Origin: Escherichia coli
GTDB lineage: Bacteria > Pseudomonadota > Gammaproteobacteria > Enterobacterales > Enterobacteriaceae
Assembly: GCF_003334335.1 (NCBI RefSeq)
Contig: NZ_QOWQ01000040.1
DNA length: 39,682 bases
Direction: 5' to 3' (one strand)
Position numbers: made by a program. Below are positions 6,001-9,000 of this stretch, in pieces. The stretch's first letter is position 1. Each line of letters begins with the position of its first letter.

Positions 6001-9000
6001 CTGCAAGCCAGAGGTGACGACCCACTGGTCGCCGATGGCTTTGCTGGCTTCAATTTCGCGTAGCTGCACGACATCGTCTTTATCCAGAATGAGCGCCGTT
6101 GCTTTACCCTGGGCGTTGTGGGTGACGCCTTCCTGCGGCACCAGTAATACATTCTGGCGGCTACCTTCATCCACTAATGCCGTGACGTACATGCCAGGCA
6201 GCAAGTCACCATTTGGGTTGGGGAAAATCGCCCGTAACGTCACGGAGCCCGTGGTTTCATCCACTGTCGGGTCGGAGAATTTCAGCGTGCCGGTCTGGCT
6301 GTAGCGTTTACCATTTTCCAGATTGAGCTGTACTGGCGTACTGCCCTGAACCTGTTTGATTTGCCCACTGGCGACCTCTTCTTTCATGCGTAAGAAATCT
6401 TGCACCGACTGCGTGAGATCGACATAAATCGGGTCCAGACGTTGTACGGTAACCAGCGAATCTGCCTGATTAGCGGTAACGAGTGCGCCGACGGTCACCG
6501 ACGATTTCCCGCTGACGCCCGTAATCGGCGAGGTGACATTCGCGTATTGCAGATTGATCGTCGCCTGTTCAACAGCCGCTTTGGCGACGGTGACATTGGC
6601 TTCTGCTTCATTCAACTGGGTGCGCGCGGTGTCGTAATCCTGACGGCTAACGTAGTTGGTCTTCAGCAACGATGCCTGGCGGTTAAAGGTGATGCGGGCA
6701 TTGCTGGCGGTAGAGAGCGCTTTCGCCAGCGAGCCTTTGGCGGAGTTTAGCTCGGCCTGTAAAGGTGCAGGATCAATCTGATACAGCGAATCGCCCTGGT
6801 TCACTTTATCGCCTTCGATAAAGTTGCGTTTAATGATAATACCGCCCACCTGGGGACGTATCTCGGCAACTTCATAAGGAACGGTTCTACCGGGCAATTC
6901 GCTCAACACATTGACCGAACCGGGGGAGAGTGTGACGACACCGACCTCAGGCGTCATGGCGGCGGCGTTTTCCGCCGATTTGTCATCGCAGGCGGTGAGC
7001 ATCGCGCCGCAGAATAACAACGGTATTAACAGCTTTCTTCTTCTGTTCATTTTAGTCCCTGAAAATTCTTGAGAAATAACGGTTCTTTAAATTGCGCGCG
7101 AGGAGAGATATGAGGGATTTACAGACCAGCGGCATAGTGGGGTTGTCAGCCAGTAAGGTGGGATACAGGCACAGTGATCGACATGGTGAGGTCAACGACA
7201 AAAAAAATGTTGCCGTTCTGCCAACAGTTCCTGCCAGCATTCGGGCAACGAAGGGTTCTACTGGTGGATACACATACCAGGGGAATAAAGTCGTTTTAGC
7301 CTCTCCTTTAGTAATCACCGGGGGTAATGAAATCAGCATCTGCATCCCTCGTCATGCCAGCCATCAATTTCAGTTGCTTATGTCCTGACTAAAAATAAGA
7401 TGTGATACCCAGGGTGACGATGTCGCTCATACGTCTTAGTTTCAGCTTGTACATAATGTTGAATTTCTGAATCTTTAATGTTTGTTGCGAAATATTGAGC
7501 GTCGACGTGATATTGCTTTCATTTTTATTTTTCAGAATCAGTTGCATAATTTTGAACTGATTATGTGAAAAACATAATTGTGAATTCTTATGGGGCAAGT
7601 GTTTACCATAAGTAATCTCAAGAAGATTTTTGATACTTTCTTTGCGGCTAACAAAATAAATAGGCGCTTTAGCTTTTAGTTTACTGATGTGATAAGGTGC
7701 CAAAACAATAATTCTCTCGGCATCTAATTTCTCCAGAAATTTAATCGCTTCTTCATCAAGGATATGATTGTGATAGGTATCAATGATAACCTTGAAGGGT
7801 TTATTGCCTACTTTTTTGATCTCTGACAGGGAATTGATTTTTATCATTTCGTGATTATCTTTCAACTGCCAAAAGCCCTGTAAAAGAAAAGAATCTTTCG
7901 TCATGAGAAAAATCATAACTTGCTCCTTAGCCGTTATCGTTTCGAATATGTCATCCTTTTCATTATTTACATCCTTGTCCGAATCGTTGTTCAATATAGT
8001 AAACGCCTATAAGAACTTTACCCTTCGTGAACTAATACGTCTATTAACACTAATCAATACTTCAGATTTATCCATCACGCACTCCATATATTGATCCTAA
8101 GTAAGATTCCTGGTTGTTATCAGCTTGTAAATAGCAAACAAAAAGTTAACGTTTGCGGATTACTGCCCAAGAATAAGTTATCAATAACCAGTTTGTGATC
8201 TCTGAAGAATATTACTAAAGTTAAAATGTAATCCGATTTAAATATCGAGTCTCCTTGTTTCGACTTAAGCTGGCAATTGGATTGCCAGCTTTCTTTTAAC
8301 GCATTGAAATTACCTGAGTAAATAACGCATTCATGTCTTCAGGTTTTTATATAGCGTCTGGAGACACGGATATTTATGCAATGTAATCAACGCCAGTTGC
8401 AAAAAAATGAACCCGGATTACTTATTTAACCGCCCATAGCATCAACGCTTACGGAACTCTTTGTTCACTTTCCCACAGCACTTTTAAAACATTAAACCTG
8501 ACTACGGAAAATATCAGCCATGATAATGTTTGAAATGGCTAATTTGCCATAGAGTGAAAAAAATTAGATGAAATTCAGTAGGTTGAAATAATCACTAGCA
8601 GGTAATTATTTCAATGATAGTGCGCAATTGATCTACAACACTGCGTAGCGGAGAGAGTATTAATCGGATCATAGTCACATCAAGTGACTATGATCCGGGT
8701 GACAACCGGGGTAATTATTGCTGCTTAACGAACAAACTGGCGAAGCTGAACAGGCTGGCGGCGCTAAATATCAGTTCAATTCCCACCAGTGTGGAAACCA
8801 GCGTTACAGACACCATCGGCGTTGCACCAAGGAATATCCAGGCAATGACGATATCCAGCACACCAATAACGAGCTGTAGCCAGCTGCCTTTCATTGAACG
8901 CTGACGATACCAACTCATCAGGCGAATAACCCCTGCAACACAGAACAAACCGGCAATAAATGCCGCAATGGCAAAAATGCCCAGCTCCGGTGCGCGGATG

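Follow-up and report, generated by a model that had tools for sequence, protein, structure and literature searches.

In a 39,682-nt stretch of Escherichia coli DNA (contig NZ_QOWQ01000040.1 of RefSeq assembly GCF_003334335.1, hereafter called the window), a hairpin at 8267–8291 followed by TCTTTT is almost certainly the Rho-independent terminator of arrS, the gene of a 70-nt small regulatory RNA (sRNA) at 8228–8297 on the plus strand. The window contains the acid fitness island of E. coli in reverse complement orientation relative to K-12 MG1655, and arrS lies in the long control region upstream of gadE, on the strand opposite to it. The features on which this assignment is built are the following:

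8228–8297, plus strand: arrS, gene of the 70-nt sRNA ArrS (K-12 b4704), sequence GTAATCCGATTTAAATATCGAGTCTCCTTGTTTCGACTTAAGCTGGCAATTGGATTGCCAGCTTTCTTTT; 70/70 match to the annotated arrS.
8267–8291, plus strand: intrinsic-terminator stem-loop of ArrS, with stems 8267–8277 and 8281–8291 and loop TGG at 8278–8280.
8292–8297, plus strand: U-rich tail of ArrS, TCTTTT, ending at the 3′ end annotated in K-12 (8297), where cross-species conservation also stops.
8228–8237, plus strand: 5′ seed of ArrS (nt 1–10), GUAAUCCGAU, for trans pairing with the cfa leader, based on a pairing computation and published mutants.
7389–7916, minus strand: gadE coding sequence (CDS), 175 amino acids, cis target of ArrS; aligns to K-12 gadE (b3512), with its ATG at 7916.
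7917–8714, no strand assigned: hdeD-gadE intergenic control region of 798 bp between two minus-strand CDSs, which contains arrS and is described in PMC3708157.

The annotation of NC_000913.3 lists a non-coding RNA arrS (b4704, 'small regulatory RNA ArrS') of 70 nt at 3657985–3658054 on the minus strand, and this sequence was found exactly, at 70 of 70 positions, at 8228–8297 on the plus strand of the window. Positions were converted between both records as window position = 10282 − (K-12 position − 3656000); in a BLAST alignment, window 5782–10282 shares 4500 of 4501 bases with MG1655 3656000–3660500, and the sole mismatch, a single-nucleotide polymorphism at 10071, lies outside arrS. Between K-12 ArrS and the window copy there is hence no sequence difference, and both share their position and strand relative to gadE and hdeD, the terminator and the cfa-pairing seed with its C7:G−101 pair. 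The first-pass annotation, made from the sequence alone, had proposed a plus-strand transcript of roughly 70 nt ending near 8297, had named ArrS as a candidate for it and had placed it antisense to the long 5′ untranslated region (UTR) of gadE. Each of these proposals was borne out: the annotated arrS is 70 nt long and has its 3′ end exactly at 8297, the comparison with the published ArrS maps it to 8228–8297 and not elsewhere, and these positions correspond to −312 to −381 from the gadE ATG, within the leader of T3, the longest gadE mRNA. The 5′ end, which had been left unfixed, is G8228 according to the annotation, with which the published numbering of residue C7 agrees. No counter-evidence to the ArrS identity was encountered. 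ArrS is already annotated and experimentally studied, so that nothing in its identity is new, and the value of the result is that of a positive control, in which a curated sRNA was found from sequence alone with its 3′ end exact to the base.

Searches against Rfam did not recover the gene. At the gathering threshold over the whole window no family covers 8228–8297, and none for ArrS appeared when 7900–8730 was searched with E-values of up to 10; a model for ArrS is therefore lacking from Rfam 15. The four weak matches in 7900–8730 (a Tetrahymena snoRNA, archaeal sRNA162, mir-35 and sR52) were dismissed as chance. Among the other RefSeq E. coli records listed or fetched, none carries a feature at the arrS site, which the absent Rfam model may explain. 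In this way arrS is invisible to routine annotation though 5412 of 5426 complete E. coli genomes carry its 70-mer, 4096 of them in the band of at least 99% identity, a band that a fully aligned 70-mer reaches only without a mismatch. We also considered a small peptide encoded within ArrS and rejected it: the RNA contains no ATG, and its only frame is a TTG-initiated one of 14 codons with no convincing ribosome-binding site.

In a terminator scan of the plus strand, the hairpin at 8267–8291 was called with TCTTTTAACG as its tail, a loop of 3 nt and a stem of 11 pairs, of which 5 are G-C. The stem in the hairpin sequence, AAGCTGGCAAT-TGG-ATTGCCAGCTT, is perfect, and with 11 bp, a 3-nt loop and the TCTTTT tail the 3′ end of ArrS has the make-up of a Rho-independent terminator. 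When both strands of the 39.7-kb window were searched for hairpins with a perfect stem of 11 bp or longer and a T-rich tail, two sites emerged, 8267–8291 and 17425–17395, while the chance expectation for such hairpins is a mean of 0.017 per window (60 dinucleotide-preserving shuffles). The segment 8220–8300 has a folding energy of −21.9 kcal/mol (z = −3.96), and 0 of 200 shuffles were equally stable. The 11-bp stem, 3-nt loop and T-run that the first-pass annotation had described at 8267–8297 opposite gadE were thus recovered by the scan, with the qualification that the T-run is short and interrupted (TCTTTT). Its description of the gadE upstream region as long and free of open reading frames (ORFs) likewise stands for the 798-bp spacer, in which only mechanical ORFs occur, namely 63 aa at 7903–8094, 30 aa at 7920–8012 and 35 aa at 8091–8198 on the plus strand, as well as a TTG-extended reading of gadE; none of them is annotated in K-12. 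The K-12 annotation also agrees with its statement that no plus-strand gene lies upstream of the hairpin. The spacer itself is 100% identical to many E. coli chromosomes and is found at a coverage of at least 80% in 5407 of 5426 complete E. coli genomes.

For a comparison across species, GadE was used to scan one genome of each species, and the gadE upstream regions obtained were aligned in ArrS orientation. Six Escherichia loci were found by the scan (E. whittamii, E. albertii, two labelled Escherichia sp. and two labelled E. coli), as well as two contaminant contigs. The alignment gave the following values:

8228–8297, ArrS: 97% identity to the window, 90% invariant columns (seven Escherichia loci).
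8298–8367, the next 70 nt: 35% identity to the window, 1% invariant columns.
8128–8191, a further segment: 76% identity to the window, 45% invariant columns.

Cross-species conservation ends exactly at the ArrS 3′ end, right after the T-run. The sampled variants of ArrS are A>G at nt 41 (common, also in CFT073), C>U at nt 37, C>U at nt 19, G>U at nt 35, a 3-nt deletion of nt 9–11 in E. albertii and U>G at nt 69 in one strain. In all loci sampled, nt 1–8 of the seed and the terminator loop UGG are invariant, and of the 11 pairs of the terminator stem 10 are invariant and one changes from A-U to G-U.

These variants bear on the question of which strand is under constraint. As the stem is a perfect inverted repeat, the T3 leader on the minus strand can fold into the same 11-bp hairpin, and the palindrome might act as a stem-loop of this leader or as DNA to which a dimeric regulator binds in the gadE control region, so that a separate plus-strand RNA would not be required; the palindrome's region overlaps the published 5′ ends of the shorter gadE mRNA T2, hence the gadE P2 promoter (PMC3708157), in a locus densely bound by regulators and H-NS (PMC12266141). 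On the minus strand, however, the hairpin is followed by AAGTCGAAAC and has no T-run, whereas the boundary of conservation coincides exactly with the plus-strand T-run. Moreover, the commonest variant, A>G at nt 41, and the C>U changes at nt 19 and nt 37 are compatible with pairing on the plus strand alone: they give G-U pairs there and would give A·C on the minus strand. These events, few in number, point to the plus-strand RNA and not to a gadE-leader hairpin as the constrained molecule. In addition, an sRNA of the palindrome's very sequence is annotated in K-12 and is known in the literature from Hfq chimeras obtained by ligating and sequencing interacting RNAs (RIL-seq), from an RNase III site and from compensatory-mutation genetics. 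We therefore consider it very unlikely that the palindrome works solely as a leader structure or regulator site, noting that one role does not preclude the other, as the complement of ArrS is necessarily part of the T3 leader. The reading as terminator of arrS is retained.

The annotated 5′ end at 8228 allowed us to look for the corresponding promoter, and a candidate was found at the appropriate distance:

8193–8221, plus strand: inferred arrS promoter, with −35 TTGTGA at 8193–8198, a 17-bp spacer, −10 TAAAGT at 8216–8221 and C−13 at 8215, based on the sequence and the annotated 5′ end.

With 8 of 12 consensus matches this putative promoter stays below the threshold of 9/12 in our scan, which did not call it. 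No variation across species is seen in the motif TTTGTGAT (8192–8199) or at C−13, T−12, A−11 and T−7. Sigma-S is known to prefer a C at −13. ArrS was reported to depend on sigma-S and GadE (PMC6755755, PMC8313858) and to be acid-induced and expressed in stationary phase (PMC6755755, PMC8313858, PMC12266141), and the combination of C−13 and TAAAGT would fit the reported dependence on both regulators. The weakness of this promoter, together with the mechanical plus-strand ORFs upstream at 7903–8094 and 8091–8198, might also be taken to mean that the hairpin ends a longer antisense transcript from inside or near gadE and not a discrete 70-nt sRNA. We deem this highly improbable, as the curated annotation gives a 70-nt RNA, the C7 numbering fits a 5′ end at 8228, the invariant promoter positions have the right spacing for 8228 and the upstream ORFs are unannotated.

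With the discrete 70-nt ArrS as the product of the locus, its position relative to the gadE transcripts can be given. The gadE mRNA has published 5′ ends at −21, −124 (T1), −324/−317 (T2) and −566 (T3) from the start codon (PMC3708157), which correspond to 7937, 8040, 8240/8233 and 8482 in the window:

8228–8297, minus strand: ArrS-complementary segment of the gadE T3 5′ UTR, −312 to −381 from the ATG, from the gadE ATG at 7916 and the starts in PMC3708157.
8233–8240, minus strand: gadE T2 5′ ends, −317 at 8233 and −324 at 8240 (PMC3708157, mapped by alignment to K-12).
8482, minus strand: gadE T3 transcription start, −566 (PMC3708157), at the edge of an invariant block at 8474–8546.

The whole 70-nt ArrS complement lies within T3, T2 overlaps 6–13 nt of the 5′ part of ArrS, and T1 has no overlap. 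From this geometry ArrS and T3 can form a perfect duplex of 70 bp, in agreement with the report that the overlap of ArrS with GadE spans the entire length of ArrS (PMC7967276). Inside this duplex, at nt 6 and nt 13 of ArrS, lie the 5′ ends of T2, a placement that fits a processing of double-stranded RNA. ArrS overexpression converts gadE T3 into the more stable T2 mRNA according to PMC6872547, a paper which also states that there has been no direct evidence so far for ArrS-mediated cleavage of T3. PMC6212723 and PMC5145812 describe gadE mRNA stability as regulated by ArrS and implicate RNase III, and an RNase III cleavage site within ArrS itself was mapped in vivo (PMC6212723). The acid survival of cells was raised by ArrS overexpression (PMC6755755). 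According to this literature, ArrS pairs in cis with T3, the longest gadE mRNA with its start at −566, and its overexpression shifts gadE mRNA towards the shorter and more stable T2 and increases acid survival.

Two observations concern the T3 leader itself. In E. albertii, E. whittamii, E69 and E1V33 (loci L004–L007), about 55–110 bp of the E. coli segment 8298–8420 are missing directly after the ArrS T-run, and the length of the gadE T3 leader therefore differs considerably between species while ArrS is kept. The block at 8474–8546, which brackets the T3 start at 8482, shows 97% identity and 89% invariant columns across Escherichia between poorly conserved flanks, and presumably represents the P3 promoter with its activator sites; a plus-strand promoter-like match, CTGACT-18-GATAAT, is located inside it at 8498–8527.

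ArrS has also been assigned functions in trans. Through the masking of an RNase E site it activates cfa (PMC6755755), and the exchange C7G in ArrS abolishes cfa activation, which is restored by G101C in cfa (PMC6755755). When nt 1–10 of ArrS were paired with K-12 cfa −212 to −1 using RNAduplex, the optimum was found at −95 to −104 with −12.5 kcal/mol, a value equalled by 0.4% of shuffled seeds. Numbered from G8228, C7 lies opposite cfa G−101 and matches the compensatory C7G/G101C mutants, and the published ArrS numbering therefore starts at 8228. As judged by its sequence, the cfa-pairing seed is intact in the window. The test was restricted to the seed after RNAduplex with full-length ArrS against cfa had yielded a duplex of 68 nt, which is unrealistic; the pairing of the ArrS 5′ half alone with cfa was not significant against shuffles. 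The predicted fold of ArrS comprises a single-stranded 5′ seed, weak internal helices and the strong terminator; the usual module of terminator and U-tail is present in its sequence. RIL-seq chimeras and reporter data associate ArrS with Hfq and with partners of the acid response (PMC5145812). Repression of fepA by ArrS requires the terminator loop, Hfq and RNase E, and is strongly impaired by mutation of this loop (PMC11979758). According to these papers, ArrS binds Hfq and acts in trans to raise cfa and lower fepA. ArrS in this manner connects GadE, the master regulator of acid resistance, with the uptake of iron (fepA) and the remodelling of membrane lipids (cfa); few other sRNAs have documented actions in cis as well as in trans.

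Several points weigh against parts of this interpretation. The expression of ArrS in the source strain is assumed from K-12. The conservation of 8228–8297 could in part result from the overlapping gadE P2 promoter and its regulator sites, and a predicted internal helix of ArrS (nt 21–24 with nt 35–38) is broken in three species and probably not real. A search of the whole window for the GAD box TTAGGATTTTGTTATTTAAA with up to three mismatches found none, a weak negative, and thus no GadE site was located at arrS. The cis mechanism is taken from papers which cite the primary ArrS work (Aiso et al. 2011, 2014). Furthermore, a ΔarrS strain shows wild-type survival of acid shock (PMC6755755), and the physiological weight of ArrS at its native level is therefore uncertain.

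Since nt 1–8 of the seed and the UGG loop are invariant and conservation ends at the ArrS 3′ end, ArrS might be maintained mainly for its Hfq-dependent functions in trans and not for its antisense role at gadE. Linked to this, the T2 ends at −317/−324 might arise by ArrS-guided processing and not from an independent P2 promoter, because they lie inside the ArrS:T3 duplex. We put this combined proposal forward tentatively and consider it rather doubtful; both of its ideas are already raised in part in the literature.

We further compared ArrS to sRNAs with related properties. GadY (RF00122), which is also present in the window, is like ArrS a cis-antisense, Hfq-binding sRNA of the acid fitness island and acid-response regulon with an intrinsic terminator, but differs from it in sequence and locus, has an Rfam family while ArrS has none, and ArrS targets a 5′ leader. 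GadY overlaps the gadX 3′ UTR in the gadX-gadW spacer. Both RNAs were classed by RIL-seq as sRNAs with trans partners (PMC5145812). The Hfq-dependent RydC, which likewise activates cfa, binds the long cfa 5′ UTR at a site that overlaps the ArrS site and, like ArrS, masks the RNase E site, but is the product of an unrelated gene; deletion of rydC lowers acid-shock survival, whereas deletion of arrS has no effect (PMC6755755). A cis target of perfect complementarity further sets ArrS apart from RydC as the latter is described in this paper. SdsR and RseX resemble ArrS in that their terminator loop is needed for fepA repression via a structure far upstream in the 5′ UTR, although their sequences are unrelated to ArrS; base pairing with fepA was neither predicted nor detected by the authors (PMC11979758).

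The remaining genes and RNAs of the window, located by ORF layout and by Rfam, are the following:

2755–5868, minus strand: mdtF, from the ORF layout.
5893–7050, minus strand: mdtE, from the ORF layout.
8715–9287, minus strand: hdeD CDS, from the ORF layout.
9542–9874, plus strand: hdeA, from the ORF layout.
9978–10316, plus strand: hdeB, from the ORF layout.
1308–1421, minus strand: GadY, Rfam gathering threshold, 150 bits; ends in an intrinsic terminator.
7200–7271, minus strand: ES205, Rfam, 105 bits.
16706–16789 and 16937–17020, minus strand: AgrB in two tandem copies, Rfam gathering threshold, 108 and 106 bits.
25798–25838, minus strand: ES036/CssrF, Rfam gathering threshold, 42 bits.

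The K-12 gene gadF (b4718, 'small regulatory RNA GadF', 3658992–3659082) maps to 7200–7290 of the window, and ES205 is therefore the 3′ part of GadF, an sRNA derived from the gadE 3′ UTR (PMC5145812). The second site of the stem search, at 17425–17395 on the minus strand, has a 12-bp stem and a 7-nt loop (AAGGGCTAAGAG-TAGTGTG-CTCTTAGCCCTT) and is separated from the AgrB copies by a few hundred bases. At the far end of the spacer that contains arrS, 18 nt past the hdeD stop codon, a 14-bp perfect inverted repeat is found at 8665–8697 (CGGATCATAGTCAC-ATCAA-GTGACTATGATCCG), which is unannotated in K-12 and has no T-run on either strand. Across Escherichia, both partners are exchanged in 3 of its 14 pairs (GA..TC to CC..GG), 96% of cells are paired, and the minus-strand fold has a z-score of −4.5. 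The repeat is probably a 3′ stem-loop of the hdeD mRNA, although the plus strand is the one on which its few one-sided changes form G-U pairs. The two contaminant contigs returned by the GadE scan consist of locus L008 (NZ_JAUFQN010000010.1, labelled Flavobacterium paronense), in which the gadE upstream region is nearly identical to the window apart from single-base insertions and deletions, and locus L009, which bears the label Streptomyces sp. DH24 and is a fragment of 466 bp that matches gadE at 100% identity; both look like E. coli contamination of the respective assemblies and not like real gadE homologues of these genera.

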